This document shows, one piece after another, positions 1 through 46,054 of a DNA stretch of 54,305 nt. Each line of letters opens with the position of its first letter. The first letter of the stretch is position 1. The position numbers and the translations under genes are program-made. Origin of the DNA: a virus (lineage: Duplodnaviria; Caudoviricetes); IMG/VR virus record IMGVR_UViG_3300035660_000014, positions 1 through 54,305 of that record. The stretch is one strand, 5' to 3'. The notes beneath the pieces were generated by a model. The model saw only the letters and a list, made by a program, of their open reading frames with translations. It had not been told where the DNA came from and made no database searches.

Positions 1-132
1 GGTGAACAACCACAGGAAACCGGTAAAGGTCCTCCCGGTGTACAACCTGTGGAGACCACACAAACCGACTGCACACCCCAACCACAGGAGGTACGAGAGG
101 AAGATGCTCTTCCCTTTAACCTTCGAGTACAT
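1..132 (-). CDS. TM2 (NINE)-domain membrane protein, runs off the window edge; absent from the ORF track
   Basis: ATG at 132 preceded by AAGGAGGT. Translates MYSKVKGKSIFLSYLLWLGCAVGLCGLHRLYTGRTFTGFLWLFT, matching the TM2 pattern KS..AYLLW..G.HRFY.G....G.LWLFT. Confidence 0.8.
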   Translation of the reverse strand, partial: MYSKVKGKSIFLSYLLWLGCAVGLCGLHRLYTGRTFTGFLWLFT

Positions 133-4296: not shown

Positions 4297-4302
4297 TCAG
4301 AG

Positions 4303-8900: not shown

Positions 8901-8954
8901 CACCATCACACTGTCGAAGTCCCGCGCGGTATAGTCGATCCTTGGAGGTGCCAC
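5904..8954 (-). CDS. Baseplate wedge protein (T4 gp6 / baseplate J-like), intein-containing
   Basis: IDYTARDFDS, FLPTARDRESV, FGDGVNGQVP, YRVGGGVRGN, GGEERETIE and RAVTERDF motifs; GTG start with AGGAGG. Confidence 0.9.
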   Translation of the reverse strand: MAPPRIDYTARDFDSVMVALRAHLQAKFPDTWRNFYESSIGMAWLELVAYTHDILSFYLDFSANECLTGDTVIPLVDGTEALIKDLVGRDPFWVYSHDHSSGKIVPGRCTGVSKTRLNAELVEVILDNNQSVRCTPDHLWMLRDGTYREAKDLTPGTSLMPLYRWYDRWGYELLYQPDIKKLVRTHLCFALGVPLEVVHHKRQPDGGFNTRDNRPEVLEWMTWCGHRELHSTPKTADHRRRISEGLQRYWLRVKSGEISGPTVTPEWRYGAGSAFRGKKRPQHAAWMGGNQFARGYHHTEDTKRHVSSLLTGVPKPEGFGAQVSEALTGRAKSFEHRCRISAALLGRKQTHESNLKRSETLKRTWSNQYACANNHRVKVVRSLVEREDCYDLRVEQHHNFGLRSGVFVHNCFLPTARDRESVIRLGKLVGYQLGLPTGAAVVCAATIGAPQVVDVVIPVGTTVQTAKGVTFRVLAEQRISAGSLTGSATFTEGEARSESFVGSGATWLRLALTEPGVVSGSISVVVDGAVWSPLSSLVFATTTSPAYQVEHDENDKVYVLFGDGVNGQVPPAGSSIVVTYRVGGGVRGNINIGEVNTSIDGYLDGVLPPTSVSVGVVNDVFRGSGGEERETIEHAKLWIPRWATTNGRAVTERDFDTLATAFSSPVYGKVAFAKAKLKQEIPELNTVELYTWARDGGGNIVEPSVGLKDALQTYFMNNGEGAIRVVCTDVEVLNGVILYVDIDVTVTPESEYTSAVVVTNVTDSLVDLFDSAENEPGVSLRISKVYNAIQDSVGVSHAVVNLITASLKSTDAIGVGNAVTTHFIATLDLEPNLPVVPHTVVVFAGTQSLTDDGEGNLTGSGTGTIDYATGAVDVTFTAAPAVGQLVYATYRNVADYQRGEVEATSDGSTARFTGVVTYPPIVPWDPITSEKGIAFSDGIQVVTDDGNGALVGDVNPGGVNHIDYDTGAYDFTFAAVPGAGTVVRSTYRQMLRTPSEDIPVLKTQLVVRGNLTIGTA
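7725..8759 (-). mobile_element. Intein (345 aa) with HNH-like and NUMOD3-like endonuclease region
   Basis: Begins ANE/CLTGDT; block B CTPDHLW; ends CYDLRVEQHHNF...VFVHN/C. Internal HH..DNRPEVLEWMT..H..LH and HTEDTKRHVS-type repeats. Removing it restores a continuous ANE-CFLPTA. Confidence 0.92.
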
Positions 8955-21432: not shown

Positions 21433-22301
21433 CTACTCCACCACAGCCTCTCTCTTGATCCTCTCGACCAACTCGATAGAGGGCAACGCGTCCTTCGCGG
21501 TCAGACCGTGGCCAGCGAGGATCTGCTCGTGTACCGCCCTGTGGAGGGTCTCGAACCCGTCGGTGAAGTCGACAACCCTCCCGTCGACGATCACGCACCT
21601 ACTTGTCGCCACGTCGGGTTGGATCGAGAACCTCCAAGCAACGGATGCCCGCTCCAACTCCAAGTCACCCGACGCGTGTGTCTTACCCAACACGGAACGG
21701 GTTGACTGGACCGGACCGAAGACCCAGAGCAGCATGTCGAGGAAGTGGATACCGATGTTCATCAACAATCCACCCGACTTCTGCTCGTCACCCTTCCACG
21801 AGTACGCGTACCACTTTCCTCTCGGTGTACAGTAGTGCAAACCGACGGTGAACCGCTTCGTGCTCTCTCCCACCCGCACCTTAAGTACCTTCACCACTGT
21901 GTGCAACCTCAACTGCAACACGGGTGGATCCTGTCGTTGTACTCAGAGTGGGTGAGTGCCAAGCAGTTCTCCGAGTGGATGGTGAGGGGTTTCTCGCAGA
22001 TCACCTCCCTACCCAACCTGAGACCGAGGCGACAGTGCGCGTCGTGGAGGTAGTTGGGTGTGCAGACCACGACGTAGTCCACACCTTCACCAGCTCTTTT
22101 CAGTTTCTCCAGGTGTCGGTCGAACCTCTCGATCTCTCTGAAGTACGACACGTCCCTGAAGTATGAGTCGAGGTAACCAACCGTGTCGTGGGGGTCTGTC
22201 ACAGCAACCAACTCCCCACCAGTCTCCTTTATAGCCCTCACGTGACGGGGAGCGACGTACCCCGCAGCACCGATGATAGCGTACCTATGTTTGCTCAACA
22301 T
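21433..22301 (-). pseudogene. wbpB: Gfo/Idh/MocA oxidoreductase (WbpB-like UDP-GlcNAcA 3-dehydrogenase) split by a frameshift near 21922
   Basis: 5' half has IIGAAGYVAPRH, TPNYLHDAH and ICEKPL; 3' half in the -1 frame has LQLRLH, YCTPRGKWYAYSWKGD..KSGG and NIGIHFLDML. Confidence 0.8.
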
Positions 22302-23140
22302 GGGCAAGCCACCTTCGATGACACCGGCACGAGGTCGCACTCAGACCAAATATGATACTCGACTGTACGACGACACTGTGCGCACCACACTCGAGCAGCG
22401 TGGGCTTTCAGTTGCACCACACTGTCGCTCAAACAATACGAAGGTTTAACCTCTACCAACCACACTATACCGTCTACACACTCGGCGACAAAATCCGCGT
22501 AGTAATGATGAAGTGACCCATCCACACACTGGTATGGGATAGGAAAGTCTACACGTCGGTAGGACACGACAGTGGCGAGGGCTTCCATCACTTCTAATGC
22601 AGACCTTTCCATCCGTGATGCACAAAACAGGGAACGTTGATTCTTCGCAGAGAAAAAATAGCTGGACTTTCCCTGCCAACTGTTCTTCTCGGGTTGGAAG
22701 CCACCCGACATGGCACGGCCTTTAGACAAAGACTGCCTTAACCGAGTGGTGGGAGACCGTTTACGGCCAACGTGTGTTGCTCGTACACGTTGAAGGACCA
22801 CATCCTTATGCTCGGCAAAATATGCAAGGCAACTAGCGGAAACACCTTTCCTTATTTCCTCAACCGCTTCAACTGTATGGTGTCGACCGAAGAATGGGTT
22901 GTCGTGGCCACGTCGACGAGTGGACAACTCGGTGCGAAGCTTCGCACACCACAACGATACGTCTTTTCCATAGGCAGACTTGTAGTCAACAACACTCATA
23001 CCATGGGTCCAATAGAGGTGAGCGGGCAAAGCCAAAAACTTGCCCCCACACACTTCGCAAACCACACCAAACTCACGCACACGCTGTTCGTAAACGGCGT
23101 CCAACTTAGCACACCTTTCGGTTTTAGGTCGACTCATCAC
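22295..23140 (-). CDS. Homing-endonuclease-like protein: Zn finger, NUMOD3, TnsA-N/PD-(D/E)XK nuclease
   Basis: CEVC...HL..TH; NPFFGRHHTVEAVEEI; YYADF...LVEVKP; locally more AT-rich than its neighbours. Confidence 0.75.
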   Translation of the reverse strand: MMSRPKTERCAKLDAVYEQRVREFGVVCEVCGGKFLALPAHLYWTHGMSVVDYKSAYGKDVSLWCAKLRTELSTRRRGHDNPFFGRHHTVEAVEEIRKGVSASCLAYFAEHKDVVLQRVRATHVGRKRSPTTRLRQSLSKGRAMSGGFQPEKNSWQGKSSYFFSAKNQRSLFCASRMERSALEVMEALATVVSYRRVDFPIPYQCVDGSLHHYYADFVAECVDGIVWLVEVKPSYCLSDSVVQLKAHAARVWCAQCRRTVEYHIWSECDLVPVSSKVACPC

Positions 23141-30365: not shown

Positions 30366-30839
30366 TTATACTCCACCCTTTAGGTGGACCACTGGGTTTG
30401 TGATGCACTTGAGAAACAAGTCCGCGTCACGACGGGACGTGACGCCGAACAGGGAGACATCGCCAACAGGTGAGGGTGTGTAGACCGCGACGAACAACCG
30501 TCTAGGACAGGCAAGGTTCCTGTCGTACCGTGGGATGACACTTATGGTCAACCCTCCCCCATCCGCGTCCCTCACCGACTCCACAACCTGGTTGTACCTA
30601 CCCAGGTACTCACCCAACACCTTTCCGATGTGGGTGCAGAATGGGGTGTGGTTGGGGAGATAACCCAACTCGGAGAGGTACTCACCAACATTTGCCTCCT
30701 TAAGACCAGGCAGTTGACCTGCAACCATATTCACCCTTCTCTCAACCACCAACTGTGCGGTTGAGAGTGCACCGTCGGGGGAGAACCAGCAACTAAGACT
30801 GTCCCCGTTAACCCTGTACGCGTTGACTCTTCGCATCAC
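30366..30839 (-). CDS. Hypothetical protein
   Basis: 157 aa ORF overlapping the upstream stop codon. Confidence 0.55.
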   Translation of the reverse strand: MMRRVNAYRVNGDSLSCWFSPDGALSTAQLVVERRVNMVAGQLPGLKEANVGEYLSELGYLPNHTPFCTHIGKVLGEYLGRYNQVVESVRDADGGGLTISVIPRYDRNLACPRRLFVAVYTPSPVGDVSLFGVTSRRDADLFLKCITNPVVHLKGGV

Positions 30840-31660
30840 TCGAGTGGTTCCCTACCACGTAGGTTCCTGTAAAAGTTCCTCACCCTCTTCTCGACCGCCG
30901 GATCTTTGACCTCCGGACGGATCTTTGTGGGGTGGAATGCCACAACATCCTTCTCCGCGAACGAGAGAGGATCACCACCCAACCTCCACCTAAAGTGGAA
31001 CTTATCCGAGAGAGGAACCACCTCGAGACCACACACCCTCGTGTAGAGTGTTATAAGGTGGTCGTCTGCGATGGTGGTGAACACCTTCGGGGTAGACCAA
31101 GGTGGCGAGAACATTCCCCTCCTTTTCATCTCCGACAGACACGACTGAGTCAAGAGGAACCCACCACCCTGGACACCCTCACCAGGTTGGTACGTTCTCG
31201 GGATCCCTCCAACATATGCCGCAACCTTGTCTCTCTCAGTGGTGAAGATGGTCCGCCAGTGCAGGTTGTCAGCATTGTAGTAACCAACCAACCCGACCTC
31301 GGGAGAGACTACGTAGTCCAACACCTCGAGGTCAACCCCAGGTTTGATGAACAGCGTGTCGTAGTCGCAACTCATGAAGTGGCCAAAGGACATCCTCTCG
31401 GAGAACCACGTGATGGAACACAGAAGGAGTTCCATCAACCCCGCACCCCACCCACACCTATGAGGGGATAGGAACACAGATTCCTCACCAAGGAGACCAC
31501 TCACCACCTTCGCGAGTTTGGTGTTTCCTCCGTCAACCGCGCAGACTACCTTAGTGGTCCCCCTCCCCGTGAACTGCAGGATCGAATCCAGTGTGTCCAA
31601 CACGAGCGCGGGATACGCGTGACACCTAACACAGACCAACAAGTCGTAGTACCCGCTCAT
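30836..31660 (-). CDS. GT-A fold (GT2-like) glycosyltransferase
   Basis: LDTLDSI...VCAVDG; DxD motif SCDYD; QGGGFLLT. Confidence 0.7.
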   Translation of the reverse strand: MSGYYDLLVCVRCHAYPALVLDTLDSILQFTGRGTTKVVCAVDGGNTKLAKVVSGLLGEESVFLSPHRCGWGAGLMELLLCSITWFSERMSFGHFMSCDYDTLFIKPGVDLEVLDYVVSPEVGLVGYYNADNLHWRTIFTTERDKVAAYVGGIPRTYQPGEGVQGGGFLLTQSCLSEMKRRGMFSPPWSTPKVFTTIADDHLITLYTRVCGLEVVPLSDKFHFRWRLGGDPLSFAEKDVVAFHPTKIRPEVKDPAVEKRVRNFYRNLRGREPLE

Positions 31661-31668
31661 ACCACCCT

Positions 31669-32775
31669 CTATCCGCGCTCACTACCCAGGTTGGATTCGT
31701 AAAGGGTGCGAGCAATCCGTTGGGCAGCCTTCCCATCCCACAACTCGGGGATCCGACCAACGCGCCACCCCCCTTGGAGAATAGCGTCATGCGCGGTCAT
31801 GATCGCCCTTGGGTCACAACCCACAAGTTGGTTAGTACCCACCTCGACGGTAATCGGTCGCTCAGTGTTGGTACGTAGTGTTGCACAAGGTACACCCAAA
31901 ATGGTCGTCTCTTCTTGGACGCCCCCGGAGTCGGTGAACACCCCAAGGCTATGGGCCATCAGTTTGAGGAAGTCCAGATACCCGAGTGGGTCGATAAGTT
32001 GCACACCAACCAACTGGCGTGAGAGACCGAACCGCGCCAGATTTATGCGTGTCCGTGGGTGGATGGGGAAGACCACGGGTGTCCTCTCCGCGATCTGCCC
32101 AAAAGTGGTGAGGAGTTTCGAAAGCACCTGAGGATTGTCCACGTTAGATGGTCGGTGCAACGTTACCAAAATGTAGGCGCGATCTGTAACCCCCAGTCGG
32201 TCGAGGATACAGCTAGATTCCGCCCGTTCACGACACCGCAAGAGTGTGTCAACCATGACGTTGCCGACAAAGAAGATCCTCTCGTCCGCGACACCCTCGA
32301 CCCGAAGGTTCCTCCGGCCACTCGGTTCGCTAACGAACAAAAAGTCACTAAGAACGTCAGTAAGTAGGCGGTTGATCTCCTCAGGCATCGACCGATCAAA
32401 GCTACGCAGACCCGCCTCCACGTGAATCACCTTAACGCCCACCCTAGCTGCTGTTAAAGCACCAGCAACGGTGCTGTTAACGTCCCCAACCACAAGCACA
32501 GCTTGAGGGCACAGTTTAAGGATTACTGGCTCCAACAGTTTCATGATCTCCGCCGTCTGCGATGTGCACGACCCAGCACTTACCCCTAAGTTGATGTCTG
32601 GTTGTGGGATACCCAGTTCGTCGAAGAACAACCCGCTCATGTTGTGGTTGAGGTGTTGCCCGGTGTGAACCAGGATAGCCTCGATCTCCGGGAACTCCTT
32701 GTAGGCCGCCATAAGGGGTGCGACCTTCATGAAGTTCGGGCGTACACCGCAAATGTTGATGATCCGGATCGTCAC
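31669..32775 (-). CDS. wecB: UDP-N-acetylglucosamine 2-epimerase (non-hydrolysing)
   Basis: GVRPNFMKVAP, HTGQH, GDVNST, HVEAGLRSFDRSMPEEINR, TDSGGVQEET, TERPIT; GTG at 32775 after AGGAG. Confidence 0.95.
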   Translation of the reverse strand: MTIRIINICGVRPNFMKVAPLMAAYKEFPEIEAILVHTGQHLNHNMSGLFFDELGIPQPDINLGVSAGSCTSQTAEIMKLLEPVILKLCPQAVLVVGDVNSTVAGALTAARVGVKVIHVEAGLRSFDRSMPEEINRLLTDVLSDFLFVSEPSGRRNLRVEGVADERIFFVGNVMVDTLLRCRERAESSCILDRLGVTDRAYILVTLHRPSNVDNPQVLSKLLTTFGQIAERTPVVFPIHPRTRINLARFGLSRQLVGVQLIDPLGYLDFLKLMAHSLGVFTDSGGVQEETTILGVPCATLRTNTERPITVEVGTNQLVGCDPRAIMTAHDAILQGGWRVGRIPELWDGKAAQRIARTLYESNLGSERG

Positions 32776-32801
32776 ATACTCTCCTAACCGAGGGTGTGTG
32801 G

Positions 32802-33581
32802 TCACCTCCAAAATTCTGTCGTCAACCACTCACCAGGCAACAACAGGTCCTTACGCACGCCCTCAGCCAGAGCAGCATTGGTTACCCCAACCTTTCTCCT
32901 GTCCTCGCAAATAGCCGATATTACGTCGTCCAGTGTGGACCAGGGAACCGCGTTGGCCAACCATCCGTTCCAAACACAGCGCCGTCCCATCAAGCCCAGT
33001 TCGACGACGGTGTTCGAGAGACCGTCGTGTGCAGTAAGACGCAATCCAATAAAGCACTGGGCATAAACTCCAGGCATCTGGTCCGGTTTCACGGAGTGCG
33101 GGGGTGACGAGTAACGGATCATGAACCGGATATCTGGTAAGCGTTTGACCGCCTGCCACACCACACCCATACCGTAACCAGTTGGCGCATCGTGGTTGCT
33201 GTACACGTAAACGAACGGTCCGAGGGGTACAGGCACAAAACCGGTAGGGTTGGAGGGGTAGACGGGTAGGTAGCGAAACCGAGCACCAACCCGCTCCAGG
33301 TCTTCGACAATGGAACGGGATATGGCTAGGTGACGAACGTGTGGAGCCTCGAGAACCCGTTTGTTGCCCGCAAGACCGAGCTTCTTGGCATCCGAACCCC
33401 CCCAGATGAGGACGGCCAACATATTGTTCCTGAGGATGGCACTACGGTCGGCGTTTGTGTAGCAACCGAAGAACACAGCGGGTTGCCCGTGGTCGTGGTA
33501 GTCAACGAGACCGTACTTCACCAGGAAACGTCGCCGGAAGAACCGAATGCTATCCGACACCCTAGCTTGGAGAATCCTCAC
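32802..33581 (-). CDS. Putative GT-B-like glycosyltransferase
   Basis: MPGVYAQCFIGLRLTAHDGLSNTVVELGLMG resembles the GT4 E-x7-E region; lies within the sugar cluster. Confidence 0.6.
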   Translation of the reverse strand: MRILQARVSDSIRFFRRRFLVKYGLVDYHDHGQPAVFFGCYTNADRSAILRNNMLAVLIWGGSDAKKLGLAGNKRVLEAPHVRHLAISRSIVEDLERVGARFRYLPVYPSNPTGFVPVPLGPFVYVYSNHDAPTGYGMGVVWQAVKRLPDIRFMIRYSSPPHSVKPDQMPGVYAQCFIGLRLTAHDGLSNTVVELGLMGRRCVWNGWLANAVPWSTLDDVISAICEDRRKVGVTNAALAEGVRKDLLLPGEWLTTEFWR

Positions 33582-34645
33582 TTAACTCCCTTCCCGTGTG
33601 CAAACAGCAACCCCTCAAACAGCGGTTTCATACGACGTGCTGAATTCTCGACCGAAAACCTCTGAGCCTGCACCGCGACTTGTGCTGACAGTCGACCACG
33701 CAGTGGGTTGTCCAACATGACGCGGACCAGCGTCTGGTAAAGCACAGGCAGGTCAAATGAGACACGCCTTCCGGTGTGGAATGGGGGGACCATCAACGGG
33801 TAGTCCTCACCCAACAATTCCATACGCGCGCGAGAACGCGCACACAGGATAGGAACACCACACGCTGAGGCTTCGAGTGCCCGGTTACTCCCCACCACGT
33901 CAAACTCAGGCCCTCGGTTACACAACAGAACCAAGTCGCAGGCGGAGATGGCGAATGGGATGTCCCCATGAGAGTAACTCGTGACCACTGTGTTCGGGGT
34001 CGAACCGGGTAACATCAGTCTCCGCTGCTTGTTCCCGGTTGCCACAAGATACCTCAACCCGGGAAACTCACGAACCAGATTCGGCAGTAGTCGCAGGAAC
34101 GCGTCCGGGTAACTCGAGGCGCACAAACGCCCGAAGTGCCCCACAACAAAGTTACCACCCACCGTTCTACGGATCAACCGCGTTCGGGGGTGGTTTTGGA
34201 GGGGGCGGAAACCGTCGTAGACAACCTGATAGAACACCACGGTGTTGGGTCGGGGTCGTCTCTCCTCAGGAAGCCAGTAGAACGTCGCACCCGCTTTCAG
34301 GTCGTCAGCCCATGCCTGCGACTGCACCACAAGATAGTCCGCACTGTTGTAGCAGTCGTACGGACCGTCGGCTACCCAGAGTCTCAACTTGTCCTTCGGG
34401 ATACGGCGGAAGACACCCGGACTCGACCTAACGTAATACAAGTCACAGTCCAACGGGACGTGATCCTCGACGGGTCCCGGGTACTCGACCAAACCGAAGT
34501 CGGACCTCGACTGGTCGAACCTGGTCCCTGAGTAATACACCTCGGCAAACCTACTGACTGCAAGCATCAACCCAACCTCGGTCACGTAGTCACCCTTAGT
34601 TGGGAGAAGTGTCTTGTGATCAGCGTACTGCCAGTAAACTTTCAC
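33578..34645 (-). CDS. GT4-like glycosyltransferase
   Basis: VVGHFGRL, AISACDLVL, SNRALEASACGVPIL. Confidence 0.75.
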   Translation of the reverse strand: MKVYWQYADHKTLLPTKGDYVTEVGLMLAVSRFAEVYYSGTRFDQSRSDFGLVEYPGPVEDHVPLDCDLYYVRSSPGVFRRIPKDKLRLWVADGPYDCYNSADYLVVQSQAWADDLKAGATFYWLPEERRPRPNTVVFYQVVYDGFRPLQNHPRTRLIRRTVGGNFVVGHFGRLCASSYPDAFLRLLPNLVREFPGLRYLVATGNKQRRLMLPGSTPNTVVTSYSHGDIPFAISACDLVLLCNRGPEFDVVGSNRALEASACGVPILCARSRARMELLGEDYPLMVPPFHTGRRVSFDLPVLYQTLVRVMLDNPLRGRLSAQVAVQAQRFSVENSARRMKPLFEGLLFAHGKGVK

Positions 34646-34665
34646 ACCAACCTCACATCAAACAC

Positions 34666-35289
34666 TTACCGCTGGACCCTTAGGCAACTCAACAACCAGA
34701 TCACCTTGGAACGTACTTTACGACCGAGAAAGTGCTCTGAAATCCGTCGAATCCGGACGAGTGGCTGGTAGCGATCGATCACCGCTTGTTGGGACTCAAA
34801 GTACCTAACGTGTGAAGCGCAGGGGAAGCACGGCACGGACAGAATCACACGCTTACCGACAGGAACAGAAGCCAGGACCGACAAGTCACCAAGGATGTGC
34901 TCCAGTGTTTCCAAAAGAACAGCCACGTCGTACTCCGCATATGCGAAGACCAGAGGGTCACACAGGTTCCCAACCCGGAAGGCAGTGTCGTACCCAGGGT
35001 TCCTGTTACGCGACCAGTTGATCGCCTCACCACTAAAGTCGACACCGAGCACGTACTTTCGACCAGCGGCAATGGCCATATGCGCGAATTGACCCGACCC
35101 GCACCCAAAATCCGCGATCCGTTCTTGTGGGCGGATCCAGTCCACCGCAGTTCTCCAAATCTCCGCGTAGGGGGTCTGCTCAGGTGCAAGCGAGTATGTT
35201 GAGTGGGGATCCTTCCGATCCTTCCTGTAGAACTTATCATACTCCTTCCCGGTGAACTCACGTCCTGCACTGTTCACAATCACTGTCAC
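34666..35289 (-). CDS. Class I SAM-dependent methyltransferase
   Basis: IADFGCGSG, GVDFS, ETLEHI. Confidence 0.85.
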   Translation of the reverse strand: MTVIVNSAGREFTGKEYDKFYRKDRKDPHSTYSLAPEQTPYAEIWRTAVDWIRPQERIADFGCGSGQFAHMAIAAGRKYVLGVDFSGEAINWSRNRNPGYDTAFRVGNLCDPLVFAYAEYDVAVLLETLEHILGDLSVLASVPVGKRVILSVPCFPCASHVRYFESQQAVIDRYQPLVRIRRISEHFLGRKVRSKVIWLLSCLRVQR

Positions 35290-35984
35290 CTCCGGTGGCT
35301 AGCTAGCATAGCAGCCCGATCCTTTGCGTCAACCGCTAGCAACTGAGGGTCCTTCTTTTTGCTCACATGCCTCGACGTACCGTCGTACCGGTAAATCCAC
35401 TCGGGTTTCGGGTTGTAGACGAAACAGTGGGGTTCCGCCTCACCGACGCGGAGCCAGAGGTCGTAGCTACAAAAGTTACCCCACTGTAAACGATAGGGAC
35501 CGTACTTCTCCCAGACACGCCTGTGCATCATCGAGTCGTCCGTCACGAAGTTCCCTTGGAGGTGCCGCTTGTAGTCGTAAGGCCAACTCACTTCGGTCCG
35601 ATACACCACCAGGTTCTCGTTAGCAGCGTAAAACGCGGAGTAACACACACCCTGACCTCTAGTACAGAGGGTCGCCTCATCCAAGCACTTGGTTGGTAGG
35701 AGGCAATCGTTACCCGAGGTGATCGTCATGTAGTCGCCGCGTGCAACGGCAAGACCAGCATTCAGTTGGCGAAACGCTTGGTGGGCACAAGGAGGTTCGG
35801 GATCCTGGTCTACCACCAACCGAGCACCACACTTCTGGGTCGAAGGAATCGACGGGTCATCCTTCACTGTGGACACAATGAGGTCCAACTCGACTCCCAC
35901 CTGAACCAGACAGGCGTTCAGCGCTGTATGAAACCAATCCGCGCGGTCGTTCCGAGTGAGTAACACCAAAGAAACCCGCATCAA
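35286..35984 (-). CDS. GT2-family glycosyltransferase
   Basis: LNAGLAVARGDY, SGNDCLLP, YDLWLR, YRY. Confidence 0.75.
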   Translation of the reverse strand: MMRVSLVLLTRNDRADWFHTALNACLVQVGVELDLIVSTVKDDPSIPSTQKCGARLVVDQDPEPPCAHQAFRQLNAGLAVARGDYMTITSGNDCLLPTKCLDEATLCTRGQGVCYSAFYAANENLVVYRTEVSWPYDYKRHLQGNFVTDDSMMHRRVWEKYGPYRLQWGNFCSYDLWLRVGEAEPHCFVYNPKPEWIYRYDGTSRHVSKKKDPQLLAVDAKDRAAMLASHRR

Positions 35985-35990
35985 AGTAGT

Positions 35991-36719
35991 CTACTCCTTC
36001 ACCGCGTAACAGAGGGACGGGTCGCTAGGGAACCTTCGGATACGGAGTTTGCCAATCCCGAGCACCTCGTCCACAGCCAACGTCTCACCCGGCCAGTAGG
36101 GGTGGTTAATGTTATCGAACACCAGAACACCACCCAGTGGCATCCTCGGGACAAAGCACTGCAGAGCCACACGTGTGGGTTCGTACAGGTCGAAGTCCAA
36201 GTAGAGCAAAGCCACGACGAAGTGTGGGTTGTTTGGAACGAACATGGGGATCAGTTTCGTAGCGTCACCACGAATCAACCTGACCTTGGGCATGTGACCG
36301 AGAAACCTATCCTTGTCGAAAGCAGTAACCAACGCGGTCAACTCGTCGTAGGAGTTCGAACACACCTGACCCGGTTGGACCAACTCGGGTCTCGTCCCGA
36401 CGTCCTGGGGTTGGGTACTGGGGAAACCCTCGAAGGTGTCAAAACCGACCACCTGACGACGCCAGTTAGTGGGTTCGAGGATAGCACTCAGCTTTGCCCA
36501 AGCCATAAGTCCACCACCACGGAACACCCCACACTCCACGATCGACCCCTCAACGGGGAGCACCATCCTCATCAACTCGTAGTACGACAGGAACCGTGCC
36601 AGGCTCTGACGAGTGACGTATTTGGGGAAGACTCGTAACTTGTCCGCAACGGCGTCTTGACAAGCGGTGAACAGTGCGACCGTGAGTTCCTCGGAATCCT
36701 TCTCTACTTGAGTCCTCAT
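35991..36719 (-). CDS. TylF/MycF/NovP-family sugar O-methyltransferase
   Basis: GSIVECGVFRGG, GFDTFEGFP, LYLDFDLYEPT, GGVLVFD, WPGET; ATG at 36719 after GGAGG. Confidence 0.88.
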   Translation of the reverse strand: MRTQVEKDSEELTVALFTACQDAVADKLRVFPKYVTRQSLARFLSYYELMRMVLPVEGSIVECGVFRGGGLMAWAKLSAILEPTNWRRQVVGFDTFEGFPSTQPQDVGTRPELVQPGQVCSNSYDELTALVTAFDKDRFLGHMPKVRLIRGDATKLIPMFVPNNPHFVVALLYLDFDLYEPTRVALQCFVPRMPLGGVLVFDNINHPYWPGETLAVDEVLGIGKLRIRRFPSDPSLCYAVKE

Positions 36720-36720
36720 C

Positions 36721-37407
36721 TCAACCTCCCATGAGGATGGAGCGACCCTCATTCTGTCCGTGGTTGAACAGCAGGTCGACGATAGACAACCCGGGGATGA
36801 ACGGGTCGCTGAGTTGCTTGTAGGTGGGGTGGGTGAACTCCTGCCACTCCACCTTCACACCAGCGGTCTCGAACACCTCAGGTTGGACGTAGCGTGCGGA
36901 TCCCTTACCACGCCCGCTTAGGTATGTTGTCGCACCCAGAATCCTACACAACCGCACAATCCTTTGAGTGCCACCCTCACCGGATCCACACCCGAGTGCG
37001 GAACTGCGGACCAACTTCGGACCCCCCAGCAAAGAGACCACCCACTCGATCAACGACGTGTTCAACACGACCAGGTTCTTCTCCCTTCGCAGAAACAAAC
37101 CCTCTAGGTGTGGCCACAAGTGGGTGAAGAAGGGTGCTTTGGCGTAGGCGTTACGGACGGTGCGGAGCAACTTCGCGGTGTTCACCCCCACAATGGTCAC
37201 CTCGTTGAACAAACACCCACAGTGGTGGGAAAGCGGCAATGTCAACATACAAGTACCACTCGGGACCCGGAGGAGAGCGTGGTTCTCGTACTTTGGGCTG
37301 TTGGTAAACACAATGTCGTCCAACAACACAAACACGTCCACGTGGAGTGCCTTGTGGAAGAACCCCAACCACGGGAGAAAGTTCGGTTGGTGGATGGCAA
37401 CTCTCAC
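36721..37407 (-). CDS. wbqC: WbqC-family protein
   Basis: VAIHQPNFLPWLGFFHK, YLSG, HPTYKQ...FIPGLSIVDLLFNHG. Confidence 0.9.
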   Translation of the reverse strand: MRVAIHQPNFLPWLGFFHKALHVDVFVLLDDIVFTNSPKYENHALLRVPSGTCMLTLPLSHHCGCLFNEVTIVGVNTAKLLRTVRNAYAKAPFFTHLWPHLEGLFLRREKNLVVLNTSLIEWVVSLLGGPKLVRSSALGCGSGEGGTQRIVRLCRILGATTYLSGRGKGSARYVQPEVFETAGVKVEWQEFTHPTYKQLSDPFIPGLSIVDLLFNHGQNEGRSILMGG

Positions 37408-38060
37408 GCGAGTGGTTCCTTGTAGATATACAGAGTAAAGTCGTTACCCCTGTAGTCGTGCCTCAACGAGACGTTCGGACTCAACACGTGGTGAACCCAC
37501 TGCAAGGTGGTTAGTGGGGAGTGGTACCAGGACTCGGTGTCTCGCTTGAAGGGTGTCCACTCACTAAGGAAGTTGACCGACACACCCAAACGGCAAGCGC
37601 TGAACATCTCACGTAGTGTTTGTTCCATCCACCGCTGCCCGTTGGGGGTCCTCAGGTTGAAGATACCGGATGCCACAACGTAGTCAAACTCTCGATCGAA
37701 CGGTTGCTGGCAAAGGTCTCGAACACAGAAGTCGGCAGGTGGGGGAAAGTGAGATTGCGCCAACCGCACAAGTCCCTCGTGGATGTCGATACCGAGGTAG
37801 CGCTTCGGTCGCAGGTTCAACATGCACAAAAACCTGTACAGAGCACCATCACCACAACCCACATCCAGGATCGATGTCCGACACGATACCTCACCAACAC
37901 CGCACAACACTCTAAAACGAACCTGCTGGGACTCAACATTGTGCCAACCGACCAGTCCGGGTCCGGGTGCCGCCTCGGCGAGCAACTTGTCGTAACAGGA
38001 CAGGACAATCTTACGGTCCATGTCGAACGTGTGTCCACCCGTCACTGTTAGATGATCCAC
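37404..38060 (-). CDS. Class I SAM-dependent methyltransferase
   Basis: GW...SQ..RF, ILDVGCGDG, YLGIDI, FDYVVASGIFN, HDY...DFTLY. Confidence 0.85.
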   Translation of the reverse strand: MDHLTVTGGHTFDMDRKIVLSCYDKLLAEAAPGPGLVGWHNVESQQVRFRVLCGVGEVSCRTSILDVGCGDGALYRFLCMLNLRPKRYLGIDIHEGLVRLAQSHFPPPADFCVRDLCQQPFDREFDYVVASGIFNLRTPNGQRWMEQTLREMFSACRLGVSVNFLSEWTPFKRDTESWYHSPLTTLQWVHHVLSPNVSLRHDYRGNDFTLYIYKEPLA

Positions 38061-38668
38061 CGTAGCACCTCGAACGCCTCAGCGTAACCCGCTCCAATTT
38101 GCACCCCACGAACCCTGGCGAGACCCCTCAGAAAGTCCTCTGTGGTGTAAAGGTGGTCAGCCTGACTACGGTAGGCATGTATGGCCTCAACTTTCCGCCC
38201 AACGTCTTCAGGTGACAGTCGAACGAAGAAGGAAGCCTTGAAGGTCAGGTTGTTCCACGGTAGTTCATACCCCACCAAGGTCGTCCGTTTGAAGGCACGA
38301 AAACCCTCATGGGAGACGACCTGGTGGTCCTGGTGGGTGTCGTCGGTGCTCGGGATGAAAACCATGTCGGGTTGGAGCGACCCCTGGAGAGCGACCAGTA
38401 CCTCTAGGATCGCTTGCCGAAAGGATGGGAAGTTCCGTACTGGGAAGTCCTTCACTTGTACACACCCCACCTGGACACCCAGGATGCGAGTCGCTTGAAT
38501 CACCTCATCCCGAAGGGTGTTGGGAGACCACTGTGCGGATAAACTGGTCTCAGCAGCGGAGAGTGCAACATAGTGGACGTTGTGACCCTCGCGGATCAAT
38601 CGGTGCACCGTCCCACCACAACCGAATTCACCATCATCCGTGTGTGGCGCTAGAATCAGGACGCGCAT
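38048..38668 (-). CDS. PIG-L/LmbE-family N-deacetylase
   Basis: LAPHTDDGEFGCGG, DTHQDH, YRSQ, AEAF. Confidence 0.92.
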   Translation of the reverse strand: MRVLILAPHTDDGEFGCGGTVHRLIREGHNVHYVALSAAETSLSAQWSPNTLRDEVIQATRILGVQVGCVQVKDFPVRNFPSFRQAILEVLVALQGSLQPDMVFIPSTDDTHQDHQVVSHEGFRAFKRTTLVGYELPWNNLTFKASFFVRLSPEDVGRKVEAIHAYRSQADHLYTTEDFLRGLARVRGVQIGAGYAEAFEVLRWII

Positions 38669-39378
38669 GTCTGCCCCTTCATCCGCTCAAGCGACGCCGC
38701 CACGATACGGTGGGCACATTTCTTCTGTTCCCCACCAAGAGTGGAACTGATACTACCCGGTCTGGAGGACCGGTAGATGTAGGTCATGTGGTCCACCCAG
38801 AACACCCGACAACCCGTCTCGGCCACAATGACAGCCAGTTGAAGGTCAACCGCGTAGGGGATCGACACATCGAGACCACGCGACTTCTCATACCAGTGTT
38901 TGGAGAAAAACTGCTGGCAACTGGCCTTCCACCACCCGTCAAGGCAGACAGCTTGCCAGAGAGTCCGACCCGGTGGGAGGTTGTGTGACCAACCTGTGTG
39001 AACATGGTCGTTGTAAAACCGCCACCTGCTCCACGCATAACCTAGGTCAGGGTCTCTCCCAAAGAGGGGCACGACACACTCCAAACTGTGGGGTTCCAAG
39101 AGATCGTCCGAACCCACGAACGTTAGGACGGGTCCTTGTGCATACCTAATCCCCTCCGCGAGTGCGGTAGGTAGACCACGATGAGGTAGTCGCAACATCG
39201 AGACCGGCTTACCCACCATCAGTCGCTCGACAGCGCGGTCCGTACCGTCGGTCGAGCCGTCGTCAACCACGAGCACGTCGAAGTCCCGGTAGGTCTGCTG
39301 AAGAGCTGATTGGATAGCGTCACCGACGTAGGGTGCGGTGTTGTACGCAGGCATCAGGATGGTACAGTGAAGCGGCAA
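38656..39378 (-). CDS. GT2-family glycosyltransferase (start probably TTG at 39378; frame open to 39519)
   Basis: ILMPAYNTAPY..AIQSALQQTY.DF.VLVVDDGSTDGT, GSDD. Confidence 0.88.
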   Translation of the reverse strand: MPLHCTILMPAYNTAPYVGDAIQSALQQTYRDFDVLVVDDGSTDGTDRAVERLMVGKPVSMLRLPHRGLPTALAEGIRYAQGPVLTFVGSDDLLEPHSLECVVPLFGRDPDLGYAWSRWRFYNDHVHTGWSHNLPPGRTLWQAVCLDGWWKASCQQFFSKHWYEKSRGLDVSIPYAVDLQLAVIVAETGCRVFWVDHMTYIYRSSRPGSISSTLGGEQKKCAHRIVAASLERMKGQTCAS

Positions 39379-39522
39379 GGTCTCCCTCTGGTGTGCGGTG
39401 CGAGGACAAGTATGTGGGTGGGCAAACGGAGTGACGTGGGTGTTCGAGGTAGCACATCTCTCTCCTAACCCAACCACGACTACGTTCGAGGTGAGGGTAC
39501 TACGCACCTGTGGCAGCACGGT

Positions 39523-39837: not shown

Positions 39838-40335
39838 CTACGGACTTGCCGCAGGAGGCTTCTCGGGATAGAACGTCCGCACCAGGTTGACGACCTCCCG
39901 GGTGATCGCTGGTATCGCCTCGGTCGTCATGCCCGCTCCCATCCACTCCGACACCTTGCCTTTCAGCACCAGGACCTTCGCCAGTTCCGCGTCATTCTTG
40001 TCCTGGGCCTCTTGCATTTTCTTGATGACACCGACCGTGTCGGCCTTCACCTTGTCCCGGTGTGCGATCAGGCTCTTGACCTCGATCTCCATCCTCTCGG
40101 GTGTCAGGTTCAGGGTCTTCAGTTTGTCGATGACCTTCTGCGTAGTGTAGTCGGCGTCAGCCTCGCGTGCCATCGTGTAGATTTTGGCCCACCCGTCCTG
40201 AATCTCATGGTTGTTGACGGCATAGGTCTTGATACCCATCCCGATCCACGCGTCGGACTGCCGCACCGCCAGGGGCTCCAGACACCCCACCACAAACAAC
40301 GTGAGGAACGCCAACACAACCACAGTTTTCCTCAT
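39838..40335 (-). CDS. Putative lipoprotein (possibly spanin-like)
   Basis: MRKTVVVLAFLTLFVVGC signal peptide with a lipobox-like Cys, then coiled coil; follows a holin-like gene. Confidence 0.6.
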   Translation of the reverse strand: MRKTVVVLAFLTLFVVGCLEPLAVRQSDAWIGMGIKTYAVNNHEIQDGWAKIYTMAREADADYTTQKVIDKLKTLNLTPERMEIEVKSLIAHRDKVKADTVGVIKKMQEAQDKNDAELAKVLVLKGKVSEWMGAGMTTEAIPAITREVVNLVRTFYPEKPPAASP

Positions 40336-40382
40336 GGTACACCTACCTTTCTTTTCCTCTCCTTGTTCCTTCCACACCTAGT

Positions 40383-40661
40383 TTAGGTGAACGACTTGAT
40401 CGCAGCGGGAATCACGGTCTTCGCTGCCACGTTGTACGTTGCGATCGCTGCCGCACCAATGAAGAGCCCGATCCTGACGTCGTCCAGGGTTACAGGGAGG
40501 GTGCTCCAGATCACGTCCCGAACGACAACCGACAGGACGCCAAGGGCAAGAGACGCGAGGGGAAGTATCCCGGTGTGGTCCTTAACCCACTGGATCAGCT
40601 TCGTGGCTTGAAGCACCACCACAACTAGGGCGGTCAACCCTGCATCACTCCAATCGAACAT
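40383..40661 (-). CDS. Putative holin
   Basis: 92 aa with three hydrophobic segments; AAGGAG RBS. Confidence 0.55.
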   Translation of the reverse strand: MFDWSDAGLTALVVVVLQATKLIQWVKDHTGILPLASLALGVLSVVVRDVIWSTLPVTLDDVRIGLFIGAAAIATYNVAAKTVIPAAIKSFT

Positions 40662-40672
40662 GTTCTCTCTCC

Positions 40673-41032
40673 TTACGAGTTTCCTGGTTCACCACCGGAA
40701 GGGGGTGCACTCAACTTCACACTCCCACCGGAGGTGTTGAGTTTTTTGATTGTCCCATCGAGGCTGTCCACAGATTTGGTCAACGACTTGATCTCGGCAA
40801 CCAGGGATGCCTGCTCGACCTTCAGTTGCACAACATAGGCGTTCGCCTCGTCCACACCCCGTTGCATGAGAAGGTAACTACCCACAATACCCGAGACGGC
40901 GACAAGGGAGAGGGTGATGACTACACTCCAGGGGACCTTGGTGTTCAACTTGTCGTACAACCTACCGATCGTCTCGTCCAGTGTTCTGTGTGTCCCCACA
41001 CATTCCTCTCTGGTGACAGGTGGTGAACCCAC
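40673..41032 (-). CDS. Single-TM coiled-coil protein (lysis-associated type)
   Basis: VTREEC N-terminus; TM segment WSVVITLSLVAVSGIVGSYL; heptad C-terminus. Confidence 0.55.
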   Translation of the reverse strand: MGSPPVTREECVGTHRTLDETIGRLYDKLNTKVPWSVVITLSLVAVSGIVGSYLLMQRGVDEANAYVVQLKVEQASLVAEIKSLTKSVDSLDGTIKKLNTSGGSVKLSAPPSGGEPGNS

Positions 41033-41044
41033 GTCTATGTCCCC

Positions 41045-42271
41045 TTACGGTTGTACCACGGTCTCACACTCGTCTTCACAACCACCGAGTTCGCAACCGG
41101 ACTGGCAGGTTACTTGGCAGGTTGCTTGGCAAGTATTCTCACACACCACCTCACAACCACCGAGCTGACAATAGGCCTGACAAGCCACCTGACAACCACC
41201 GAGCTGACAGGCTGTCTGGCAGATGTTCTCACACTCGATCTCACAACCACTGAGCTGACAGAAACCTTGGCATATGGTCTCACACACCTCCTGACAACCA
41301 CCGAGTTCGCAACCTGCTTGGCACTCGGCTTCACAAGCAACCTCGCAACTGGACTGGCAGGTTACTTGGCAGGTTGCTTCGCAGAAATTCTCACACTTGG
41401 TCTCGCATCCACCGAGTTCGCAGGTGTTCTGGCAATGGACCTGACAAGCCACCTCACAACTACTGAGTTGACAGGCTGTCTGGCAAGTATTCTCACACTC
41501 GGTCTCACAACCACCGAGCTGACAGGTGTTCTGGCAGGTGTTCTCACACAACTCCTCACAACTACTGAGTTCACATTGTGCCTGACAACCACCGAGCTGA
41601 CAGATGTTCTGGCAGGTGGTCTCACACGTTTCTTGACAACCACCAAGTTCGCAACCTGCTTGGCACTCGGCTTCACAAGCAACCTCACAACTGAACTGGC
41701 AGGTGAGTTGGCAGGTTGCTTGGCAATCGGCCTCACACACTACCTCACAACCGAGTTGACAGGTGTTCTGGCAAGTATTCTCACACTCGGTCTCACAACC
41801 ACCGAGCTGACAGGAACCTTGGCATGTGGTCTCACACACCTCCTGACAACTACTGAGTTCACATTGTGCCTGACAACCACCGAGCTGACAGATGTTCTGG
41901 CAGGTATTCTCACACTCGGTCTCGCATCCGCTCTGACAGTGGGCCTGACAAGACACCTCACACTCGGTTTGACAACCCTGGAATTCGCAACCGGACTGAC
42001 AGTGGAGTTGGCAGGTGGCCTCACACGCGACCTCGCACCCGACCTCGCAAGTAACCTCGCACCCGACCTCGCAAGTAACCTCGCACCCGACCTCGCAAGT
42101 AACCTCGCACCCGACCTCGCAAGTAACCTCGCACCCGACCTCGCAACCACCGGTACCTATCCTTAACTGGCGACCACCCAGTGTGGTCTTCCCCATTAAC
42201 CCGATGACCAGACACTGACCCTCCTCACCCACGAGGAAAGGGTCGTCGGGTTTGACACCATGGAGTCCCAC
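41045..42271 (-). CDS. Cys-x3 repeat protein (~40-aa leader plus ~360 aa of C-(E/Q)-x-x)
   Basis: GGCEVGCEVTC...CENTCQNICQLGGC... continues to the C-terminus; same repeat vocabulary as 4303..5886. Confidence 0.8.
   Translation of the reverse strand: MGLHGVKPDDPFLVGEEGQCLVIGLMGKTTLGGRQLRIGTGGCEVGCEVTCEVGCEVTCEVGCEVTCEVGCEVTCEVGCEVACEATCQLHCQSGCEFQGCQTECEVSCQAHCQSGCETECENTCQNICQLGGCQAQCELSSCQEVCETTCQGSCQLGGCETECENTCQNTCQLGCEVVCEADCQATCQLTCQFSCEVACEAECQAGCELGGCQETCETTCQNICQLGGCQAQCELSSCEELCENTCQNTCQLGGCETECENTCQTACQLSSCEVACQVHCQNTCELGGCETKCENFCEATCQVTCQSSCEVACEAECQAGCELGGCQEVCETICQGFCQLSGCEIECENICQTACQLGGCQVACQAYCQLGGCEVVCENTCQATCQVTCQSGCELGGCEDECETVVQP
42030..42146. repeat. Perfect 24-bp tandem repeat (4 full copies plus a 21-bp partial)
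   Basis: Unit ACCTCGCACCCGACCTCGCAAGTA, encoding CEVGCEVT on the minus strand. Confidence 0.95.
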
Positions 42272-42272
42272 G

Positions 42273-42647
42273 CTATGCGGGTCCGTTCAGGTTCACCTGA
42301 GGTCCAGGTCGCACCGTTATCGTGGGTGCGCCCACACCACCCTCAATCCCGACCACGAACGTGTCGGAGAGGACACTTGTGATCCCTCCTATCACTGCCA
42401 CGAACAGAACGTGGTAGACACCAACGGGGTAGTCGGAGATGTCCAGAGGTGCACCCCAGTAACCAACCTGCCCATCCAACTGTGCAAGGACAAGTTGAAC
42501 TAGCAGCGTGAGTCCGCCACCCACTAGGTCCACACTGTAGACCCTCGCGATACACGAGTCGGGGTCCACCCTCTGGCCTGTGGCGTCTACGATGGTGGTA
42601 CAAACGTTGAGGTTGCCAGCGAAACCCACCGAGACCTTTGCTAACAA
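42273..42647 (-). CDS. Hypothetical beta-rich virion-type protein
   Basis: TTG start after AGGAGG; Ig-like pattern GYWGAPLDISDYPVGVYHVLF. Confidence 0.6.
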   Translation of the reverse strand: MLAKVSVGFAGNLNVCTTIVDATGQRVDPDSCIARVYSVDLVGGGLTLLVQLVLAQLDGQVGYWGAPLDISDYPVGVYHVLFVAVIGGITSVLSDTFVVGIEGGVGAPTITVRPGPQVNLNGPA

Positions 42648-45376: not shown

Positions 45377-45638
45377 CTGTCGTTCCTCCTTCGTCCCTCA
45401 GTAGTTCCTCGAGAGTGCCACGGAGGTCATCCAAAGGGAGGGACAACCTTTTGTTGGCCAACTTCGAGGTCGCTTCCGTAACCTCGAATTTTCTGGAGCA
45501 GATGATGCAGGTTGCCTCACCGGGGAGGACCTTATAGGGTCTCCCGCTCTCGTACGCGGGTGTGACGATGATGTTCCCACAGTGGGGACACCTCAGGTCA
45601 CCCAAACACGTCACCTCCGCACTGAGTCCGTTCCTCAC
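45348..45638 (-). CDS. Zn-ribbon protein
   Basis: CPHC and CIIC pairs; overlaps both neighbours. Confidence 0.6.
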   Translation of the reverse strand: MRNGLSAEVTCLGDLRCPHCGNIIVTPAYESGRPYKVLPGEATCIICSRKFEVTEATSKLANKRLSLPLDDLRGTLEELLRDEGGTTDAEPERPVG

Positions 45639-46054
45639 TGACTCTCTCCTATGGTGGAAACAGGTTCGGGTTGCTGCGTGAGGATGGGTGGGTACCCATG
45701 CATGCGTGCGATGTCAACGTACCGCTTGAACCTCCGTGCGGAGTCGAGTTCGCACATGATCTCGTTCCAGATGGCCTTGTAGGCGTAGGTTGAGAACTTG
45801 ACTCTGGTGGGGTCGAACTCACCCGAGACTGCTTTCTTCGCAGCCTTTATCAACCCCACCAGACCGATCTGGACGAGGTCCTCGTAGGCGTACCCGTACT
45901 TCATCCCGAGGGCGACGTACTTCTTCGCAACGCTGTGAGCGAGACCCATGTGGTCGGTGATGAGTTTGAACTCATCGACCCCGGCAACCTCCACTATGTG
46001 GTCCACGATTCCCTCCCATGTGAGTTGTACCCTCTCGTGTGGTCTCACGCGCAC
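45635..46054 (-). CDS. Sigma-70 family region-2-only protein
   Basis: HMGLAHSVAKKY...EDLVQIGLVGLIKAAK...FDPTR.VKFSTYAY..I; ends without a region 4 HTH. Confidence 0.8.
   Translation of the reverse strand: MRVRPHERVQLTWEGIVDHIVEVAGVDEFKLITDHMGLAHSVAKKYVALGMKYGYAYEDLVQIGLVGLIKAAKKAVSGEFDPTRVKFSTYAYKAIWNEIMCELDSARRFKRYVDIARMHGYPPILTQQPEPVSTIGESQ

Follow-up and report, generated by a model that had tools for sequence, protein, structure and literature searches.

A cysteine ladder of 87 units as a candidate tail module in a T4-like phage, and radical SAM enzymes beside its relatives in other viruses

Introduction

Enzymatic thioether stapling is known for short peptides. The SCIFF peptides (CteA/CteB, Tte1186a; TIGR03974), for example, have six cysteines in about 45 residues, one every fourth residue and with Gln or Glu after the Cys, and are encoded next to a dedicated maturase; in PapA the register is Cys-x3-Asp. 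Here we describe a viral protein in which units of the form C-(E/Q)-x-x, which we call the ladder, follow one another 87 times. It is encoded by a free-standing open reading frame (ORF) of 408 amino acids, ORF408 (41045..42271, minus strand, GTG start), in the IMG/VR virus record IMGVR_UViG_3300035660_000014, whose 54,305 bases were analyzed as a whole and are referred to as the window. By estimate this record is about 42% complete. ORF408 shares the register of the SCIFF peptides and is nine times longer.

Three systems that depend on radical S-adenosylmethionine (SAM) enzymes offer the closest chemistry. In freyrasin (PapB/PapA; NF047865) six Cys-to-Asp thioethers are reported (PMC8326336). 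The ladder is like it in repeating a Cys together with an acidic acceptor; however, freyrasin is a short peptide, whereas ORF408 has 408 residues, 87 units and Glu or Gln as potential acceptors, and no enzyme is encoded in the window. The same source describes the streptococcal pair NxxcA/NxxcB, a system of the RiPP class (peptides made on the ribosome and modified after translation) in which a thioether joins Cys23 to Asn20, i.e., to an acceptor three residues before the Cys, and QhpD, which makes Cys-Glu and Cys-Asp links (PMC8326336). Every E/Q-x-x-C of the ladder has the NxxcA register, Glx (Glu or Gln) being one carbon longer than Asn, but NxxcA is a short peptide with a single ring and an Asn acceptor, and the likeness of the ladder to it is one of sequence.

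At the scale of whole proteins, a report of September 2026 showed enzymatic thioether stapling in one case, from an archaeon (PMC13692751). This is CrpA of Methanococcus voltae, a large Cys-rich protein in which a 17-residue motif with C-X-X-Q/D occurs 10 times, and on which the SPASM radical SAM enzyme CrpC puts ranthionine-type links (PMC13692751). Compared by description and not by sequence, CrpA differs from the ladder in that its modified motifs are CAGM, CAVD, PCAGD and CPLV, the protein is archaeal and cellular, and its enzyme belongs to TIGR04463.

A first-pass annotation of this DNA had compared the protein with SCIFF precursors and CXXX-repeat targets, and family models did not place it among them. 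When ORF408 was scanned against NCBIfam (E<=10) the only match was the CXXX-repeat target family TIGR04117, at 11.3 bits for a cut-off of 50 (E 0.28), so that ORF408 is not a member of it, and no SCIFF precursor model matched. Both have cysteines in a four-residue register; unlike ORF408, however, TIGR04117 is a model of 98 positions for paralogous small proteins with an adjacent maturase of the TIGR04115 type, of which there is none in the 54 kb. In our literature search, no paper described a C-(E/Q)-x-x ladder, the modification of phage particles by radical SAM enzymes, or thioether stapling in virus particles.

The cysteine ladder of ORF408

ORF408 contains 88 cysteines, 87 of which are followed by Glu or Gln (46 Glu and 41 Gln, the remaining one by Leu), in agreement with the 80 to 90 cysteines in C-(E/Q)-x-x register first noticed in this protein; Asp and Asn never occupy this position. 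The N-terminus of 42 residues with one Cys (42146..42271, minus strand) corresponds to the leader of about 40 residues also described at that stage. It precedes 87 C-(E/Q)-x-x(-x) units at residues 43-402, which with the last 6 residues of the protein take up 41048..42145 (minus strand). Consecutive cysteines are spaced by 4 residues in 71 cases and by 5 in 15, with a single interval of 23 between Cys20 of the leader and Cys43, and the 15 five-residue units, which read LGG, LSS, LSG or FQG, are what had been seen as LGG/LSS punctuation. In total Cys makes up 21.6% of the protein and Glu 14.7%. An alternative ATG start is found at residue 26.

At the DNA level the ladder includes a perfect 24-nt tandem array (42030..42146, minus strand; 4.9 copies with 100% matches) that encodes (CEVGCEVT)n and that, from its perfect copies, is the putative youngest part of the ladder. 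Other periods (51, 78, 102 and 288 nt) show 70-84% matches. The pattern TGYSAR-N6-TGYSAR-N6-TGY matched the window at 101 places, where shuffling leads one to expect 0.04, and thus the ladder pattern is not random. The gene is tightly packed between its neighbors: the stop of the upstream gene lies at 42273, 1 nt before the start of ORF408, and the next gene starts at 41032, 12 nt downstream. A word-based search with residues 1-45 gave no relative that would point to a conserved leader, and a promoter and terminator scan gave nothing distinctive.

Ladder tails on baseplate proteins

An indication of what ORF408 may be comes from the tail genes of the same phage. Nearly half of the pattern matches (46 of the 101) are located at 3520-5247, within two adjacent genes, and therefore the repeat is not confined to ORF408; the protein is free-standing as first described, but its repeat is not. 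The first of the two genes, P0235 (4303..5886, minus strand), codes for a tail/baseplate protein of 527 amino acids with a Tail_P2_I domain (PF09684) at residues 39-120; its C-terminal part, about 300 amino acids, is a C[EQ]xx ladder. The second, P0234 (2431..4296, minus strand), codes for a Tail_P2_I-like protein of 621 amino acids in which the ladder occupies approximately residues 229-300 and is followed by a C-terminal domain of about 320 amino acids. ORF408 and the tail of P0235 are 47-48% identical over about 330 amino acids (E 8e-65) and have strings such as LGGCEVVCENTCQ in common. On the basis of this identity and of the common strings, ORF408 is, by predicted descent, a free-standing paralogue of the tail of the phage's own baseplate protein. 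The N-termini of P0235 and P0234 are of the P2 gpI type, with the ladder as their extension, and gpI-type proteins meet the fibres at the position of this C-terminal extension. Unlike them, ORF408 is the extension alone: it has no Pfam match, hence no Tail_P2_I domain, and only 42 of its residues lie outside the repeat.

A related pair of tail genes was found in another virus, G031, a record of 39 kb that is 30% complete. Two ORFs of 356 and 819 amino acids reproduce there the gene order of P0235 and P0234; the first has 37% identity to P0235 (E 7e-64) and the second 38% identity to P0234 (E 1e-131). After the tail genes come ORFs of 546 and 153 amino acids, a PapB-like radical SAM/SPASM enzyme of 507 amino acids (184 bits) and two glycosyltransferases. 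The 546-amino-acid ORF has no NCBIfam match and was taken as a non-enzyme; a counterpart of it at the left end of the window was considered and rejected, as the ORFs that follow P0234 (135, 252 and 343 amino acids) are unrelated. No free-standing ladder gene was present within the 39 kb of G031. With an alignment of P0234 and its G031 orthologue as the query, viral contigs returned only G031 and metagenomes one contig of 1.6 kb.

Radical SAM enzymes beside ladder genes in other viruses

A DNA pattern for seven consecutive units detected at least 117 stretches in viral contigs, giant-virus bins included. Starting from 100 of these loci, we searched 78 whole records with the radical SAM family PF04055 and left out 22 loci. 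Because the DNA pattern has false positives on the mirror strand, the records were divided by whether a C[EQ]xx frame was open over 80 amino acids or more, as it was in 46, or not, as in the 32 that served as a control; the split is a crude proxy, the tallies were made by hand and two of the 32 controls were checked by eye. Both of these (L019 and L054) turned out to carry SQL(D/Y) repeat proteins on the other strand. This different viral repeat, (D/Y/C/S)-S-Q-L in a four-residue register (L019:3659-5098 (+) and L054:2-1159 (+)), is fused to a conserved C-terminal domain and, when read on the reverse strand, imitates the codons of the C[EQ]xx pattern.

A radical SAM match was present in 19 of the 46 open-frame records. 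In 14 it abutted the ladder gene (G004, G006, G014, G023, G025, G039, G041, G045, G050, G065, G069, G073, G076 and G077) and in three it was located within about 2 kb, namely in G031, with two ORFs between, in G052, across a gap of 780 nt, and in G038, a doubtful case on the opposite strand with a short frame. In the last two (G021 and G028) the match was about 10 kb from the ladder. Among the 32 control records there were two matches, both more than 30 kb from the pattern, none abutting and none nearby. The neighborhood of the ladder with radical SAM/SPASM enzymes of the thioether type is therefore non-random, and maturase-like genes of the kind that the first-pass annotation suggested looking for do co-occur with these repeats in other viruses. 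The tally is a lower bound, since PF04055 missed a divergent enzyme in G059, a record counted as having none: an ORF of 520 amino acids (L269:1220-2782 (+)) with the motif CSGGCVYC and 29.6 bits to QhpD stands two genes upstream of a ladder protein of 759 amino acids, with ORFs of 196 and 111 amino acids between. By eye, the 196-amino-acid ORF looks like a homing endonuclease.

Seventeen radical SAM ORFs were scanned against NCBIfam with a limit of 1e-25, leaving aside a fusion protein described below (P0039) and the 546-amino-acid ORF of G031. The best family was PapB (NF047865) in 13 and QhpD in two, and the remaining two had no match at this limit. With scores of 56-281 bits, none reached the curated cut-off of 340 bits. 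Several of them contained SPASM domains, and TIGR04115 was among the weaker matches. Against the SCIFF-maturase model the viral enzymes align from about position 95 onward and thus seem to lack the N-terminal part that the peptide maturases have; we take this part to be the leader-binding RiPP recognition element. The exception to separate genes is P0039, a database homologue in which a SCIFF-maturase-like radical SAM/SPASM part (258 bits against a cut-off of 425) is fused to a ladder and a CFI-box C-terminal domain. Judging from these gene neighborhoods and from the fusion, radical SAM/SPASM enzymes of three types (PapB, SCIFF maturase and QhpD) are, across the family, putative partners of the ladder.

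Some of these loci showed further features. In G069 the ladder protein (L266:2680-4170 (+)) has an (HSD)8 repeat at its end, and three radical SAM genes come after it in a row. In G023 we considered that the ladder ORF might be leaderless and rejected this, the full ORF having 613 amino acids with an N-terminus of about 60. The first 60 or so residues of this protein (L268:1130-2971 (-)) resemble by eye the last 55 or so of the product of the gene upstream (L268:2955-3746 (-)), with the common outline FIVVDL...PGxGETF...DGxLDFS.... A similar stretch before the ladder can be seen by eye in G065 and, fainter, at residues 12-42 of ORF408. From this likeness, the stretch may be a common adaptor or recognition segment.

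In the window itself, by contrast with these records, we found no radical SAM gene. The six-frame search with PF04055 gave no match, the Pfam and NCBIfam scans of the large ORFs contained no radical SAM family, and the motif CxxxCxxC occurred three times against 3.35 expected, never in a radical SAM-like ORF, which confirms what had been read from the letters of the window. There is none upstream of the tail ladder genes either. The window ends 2.4 kb past P0234, and the flanks of all three ladder genes are otherwise visible. The likeness to radical SAM substrates initially proposed for ORF408 thus stands at the level of the family, through the adjacent PapB-, SCIFF-maturase- and QhpD-like genes and the P0039 fusion, and finds no maturase within the 54 kb of this phage.

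Distribution of the ladder family

ORF408 itself gave no match in the Pfam and PHROGs scans. Near-length homologues amount to 114 proteins; by hand count about 47 of them carry the precomputed label PF27846 and five that of Tail_P2_I (PF09684). We conclude from these labels that ORF408 probably belongs to the uncharacterized repeat family PF27846. An exhaustive search retrieved 452 cluster representatives at E<=1e-3, 27 of them at E<=1e-30 and the best at E 5e-68, mostly proteins of 600-2,000 amino acids with the ladder at the C-terminus. Domain scans of the 40 best of these 452 representatives detected surface-type Pfam domains in 10 (Flg_new, Flg_new_2, Laminin_G_3, FG-GAP and Big_1/CarboxypepD_reg) and Phage-tail_3 in one; in PHROGs, tail families were found in four, and in five the repeat itself matched the unannotated phrog_6085. 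Two ladder homologues (P0003 and P0009) have C-terminal membrane anchors, and in G065 and G069 the ladder protein comes after tape-measure, distal-tail or fibre genes. Fusions of the ladder in other viruses include those with tail-tip or tail-fibre proteins.

The pattern was also found in cellular genomes, at no fewer than 120 loci. Those that we viewed were a mirror-strand case in a cadherin adhesin (L175), a SET-domain protein (L161) and an ORF of 915 amino acids without a Pfam match (L210). A search of the ESM Atlas with ORF408 gave no usable match, and ORF408 as a query for related loci found none.

Genomic context

Almost all genes of the window are on the minus strand. They include a major capsid protein of the T4 type (Gp23, E 3.7e-58) together with a prohead protease, a tail sheath and baseplate proteins similar in type to V, J (which has an intein) and P2-I, a tail-fibre protein, a sigma factor and a large AAA ATPase. 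By this content of capsid, sheath, baseplate and fibre genes, the window is predicted to be a fragment of a contractile-tailed, T4-like myovirus. Relatives were scarce: searches with a neighboring 552-amino-acid gene product and with the capsid protein returned one distant fragment each (G079 and G080, both 19% complete), and neither of these two nearest relatives has a ladder or a radical SAM gene. Against GenBank phages, the region 39.5-44 kb had no megablast match and tblastn gave one weak match (34% identity).

Immediately upstream of ORF408 is a gene for 124 amino acids (42273..42647, minus strand) with no family match in Pfam, PHROGs or NCBIfam, for which no longer homologue and no related loci were found, and for which AlphaFold2 gave a model with a mean pLDDT (the program's per-residue confidence score) of 36. 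Downstream there is a single-pass membrane/coiled-coil protein of 119 amino acids (40673..41032, minus strand) with a weak match to Rz-like spanins (phrog_739, E 3.8e-4; phrog_1299, E 3.9e-4), and beyond it a holin-like ORF (40383-40661) and a lipoprotein-like ORF (39838-40377). On the downstream side of ORF408 and these lysis-like genes, close by, extends a sugar-modifying block (30836-39519, minus strand) with a UDP-GlcNAc 2-epimerase, glycosyltransferases of families GT1 and GT2, WbqC, a PIG-L deacetylase and three methyltransferases, one of them TylF-like. In G031 the two glycosyltransferases after the ladder-linked radical SAM gene are of families GT9 and GT2. Given this block near ORF408 and the GT9 and GT2 genes after the G031 enzyme, glycosylation of the fibres may accompany the ladder.

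Elsewhere in the window, the baseplate J-like protein (5904-8954, minus strand; 1016 amino acids) contains an Intein_splicing domain at residues 73-410 (E 2.6e-17), within which there is a weak match to homing endonucleases. An ORF in the head-tail connector region (22295-23140, minus strand) has ROS/MucR, NUMOD3 and TnsA-like endonuclease motifs and, by these, is probably a homing endonuclease. The sigma factor (45635-46054, minus strand) is small and of the sigma-70/extracytoplasmic-function type (TIGR02937, 46.4 bits), and a promoter-like site precedes it at 46095-46067. The last gene at the left end (1-132, minus strand) is cut by the end of the contig.

Discussion

Our preferred reading is that ORF408 is a structural cysteine-ladder module of the tail apparatus, to which we give a probability of roughly 60%. 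It would be a rod or fibre element, acting either as a fibre of its own or as an additional strand paired with the baseplate proteins' ladder tails, and its rigidity would come from covalent or metal links through the 87 regularly spaced cysteines. Where the enzyme is present, the links would probably be thioethers between the Cys sulfur and a side-chain carbon of Glx. In this phage the ladder might be locked by a maturase whose gene lies in the host or in the stretch of the phage genome that is unseen, or else by disulfides or metal once it has left the reducing cytoplasm. By analogy, ORF408 resembles a ranthipeptide substrate at the scale of a protein. That Glu and Gln are equivalent here, with Asp and Asn absent, suits an acceptor set by the length of the side chain and not by its charge.

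A number of observations speak against this reading. We infer the location of ORF408 in the virion, its oligomerization and every chemical step; that it is a virion protein, as the first-pass annotation had it, gains indirect support from the paralogy to the Tail_P2_I baseplate tails. The gene is encoded 35 kb away from the tail module, between small uncharacterized ORFs and weak lysis-like genes. The preference for Glu and Gln after the Cys fits plain helix propensity equally well. AlphaFold2 predicted ORF408 as all-helical with helices over residues 71-394 at a mean pLDDT of 60.5 (below 50 in the 42 N-terminal residues), and VIA-align with this low-confidence model retrieved only generic helical hairpins (best Z 7.6). 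Cys, Gly, Thr and Val are poor helix formers, and the 49% of ORF408 that they make up fits poorly with an all-helical model. Regarding the enzyme, ORF408 has no radical SAM gene on either side, neither over the 12 kb upstream nor over the 41 kb downstream, while in the viral records that have one it is near the ladder gene in 17 of 19; and of the 11 open-frame records with a completeness of 90% or more, PF04055 had a match in five (adjacent in four) and none in six, G059 among them. A complex prediction of ORF408 residues 210-408 with P0235 residues 330-527 scored 0.00 and gave no answer, so that it weighs neither way.

Within the structural reading, two ways of locking the ladder have to be compared, and to each of them we assign the same rather low likelihood. 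According to the first, a PapB-like maturase from the unseen genome or from the host would form Cys-Glx thioethers while the protein is still in the cytoplasm, ahead of assembly, giving up to 87 small macrocycles. The enzyme near the ladder in 17 of the 46 viral records argues for it, and so do the enzyme close to the orthologous tail genes of G031 and the incompleteness of the window, which breaks off so near P0234. The strict Glx after the Cys also matches the acceptor types of QhpD and NxxcA described in PMC8326336. On the other side are the flanks without an enzyme and the two nearest relatives, small fragments that lack enzyme and ladder alike. The gene at the left end is no maturase; its start, with the motif GLCGLHRLYTG, presumably belongs to a TM2-domain membrane protein. 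The proximity seen in 17 of 19 records lowers the odds of an unseen maturase in this phage. Allowing for the 58% or so of the genome that is unseen and for a possible host enzyme, and considering the visible flanks without one, we regard enzymatic cross-linking of this phage's ladder as possible but doubtful.

The second way, to which we are equally hesitant to commit, dispenses with a dedicated enzyme: the ladder would stay reduced in the cytoplasm and form disulfides within or between chains, or bind metal, after lysis. This agrees with a window without maturase and with the fusion of the ladder to exported or surface proteins of cells. It is also in line with the five to six of the 11 near-complete open-frame records that have no detectable radical SAM gene and yet keep the C[EQ] register (31 of 31 units in L066, 23 of 24 in L018 and 21 of 22 in L053). 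However, PF04055 misses divergent enzymes such as that of G059, and some of the completeness calls may be artefacts because contigs begin and end in the repeat. This is the case of G043, classed as 100% complete with direct terminal repeats, which has ladder repeats (L066 and L092) at both ends; its "terminal repeat" may be the ladder itself and the call may be false. Half of the residues after the Cys are Gln, a poor metal ligand, which also counts against metal binding here.

Outside the structural reading, ORF408 could be a metallothionein- or Csp-like protein that binds or stores metal, buffering Cu, Zn or Fe in the infected cell, and this we consider quite improbable. It would share with such proteins the very high Cys content, together with abundant Glu, and, in the model, long helices with Cys every fourth residue (i, i+4). 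However, the Csp-like cysteine bundle proposed initially was not recovered: a sequence search of solved structures gave no match at E<=10, Foldseek with the low-confidence model found nothing at E<=0.001, and the fold matches of VIA-align were the generic ones mentioned above. Metal storage also leaves unexplained that the ladder is fused to tail and baseplate proteins in the same phage, as it is to virion and surface proteins elsewhere in the family.

Even less probable is that ORF408 is a giant RiPP precursor, the source of many small bioactive peptides that are cut from it and released at lysis. The leader-like N-terminus, the many core-like units and the position just upstream of the lysis-like genes would suit such a precursor, but the Pfam, PHROG and NCBIfam scans showed no protease, transporter or maturase gene beside ORF408, the sequence of ORF408 has no conserved cleavage motifs between units, and the homologues are domains of large structural proteins. 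Finally, that ORF408 is no gene, but a non-coding repeat or the mirror of a plus-strand repeat ORF (41051-42166), has next to no chance and is already contradicted: the plus-strand frame is also open and mirror-strand false positives do occur elsewhere (L019, L054), but the abutting neighbors are all on the minus strand, protein homologues reach E 5e-68 and P0235 (4303-5886) has the same frame fused in-frame to Tail_P2_I, so that the minus-strand frame is the real one and the plus-strand frame its mirror by-product.

Significance

The most far-reaching interpretation is that phages apply natural-product chemistry to their own particles, with a PapB-like enzyme tying each ladder Cys to the Glu or Gln three residues before. 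We hold this to be unlikely, more so than the cross-linking of this one ladder. If true, up to 87 four-residue thioether rings would follow one another along ORF408 and make it a rod. Jointly with the ladder tails of the baseplate proteins this rod would form a tail fibre or reinforce one, and by a wide margin it would be the most heavily cross-linked ribosomally made protein known. It would provide a redox-proof alternative to disulfides for virions that are made in, or released into, reducing habitats. Ladders that are cross-linked in this manner would represent a new route to rigid fibres resistant to proteases and reduction, a new class of post-translational modification in phages and a supply of enzymes that work on entire proteins and need no leader peptide. 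Many ladder viruses have no detectable maturase, and in these the module must function, or be served, by other means. To this family the window adds an extreme free-standing ladder of 87 units and the observation that a single phage can carry three ladder genes, two of them for baseplate proteins, while G031 ties the orthologous tail genes to an enzyme.

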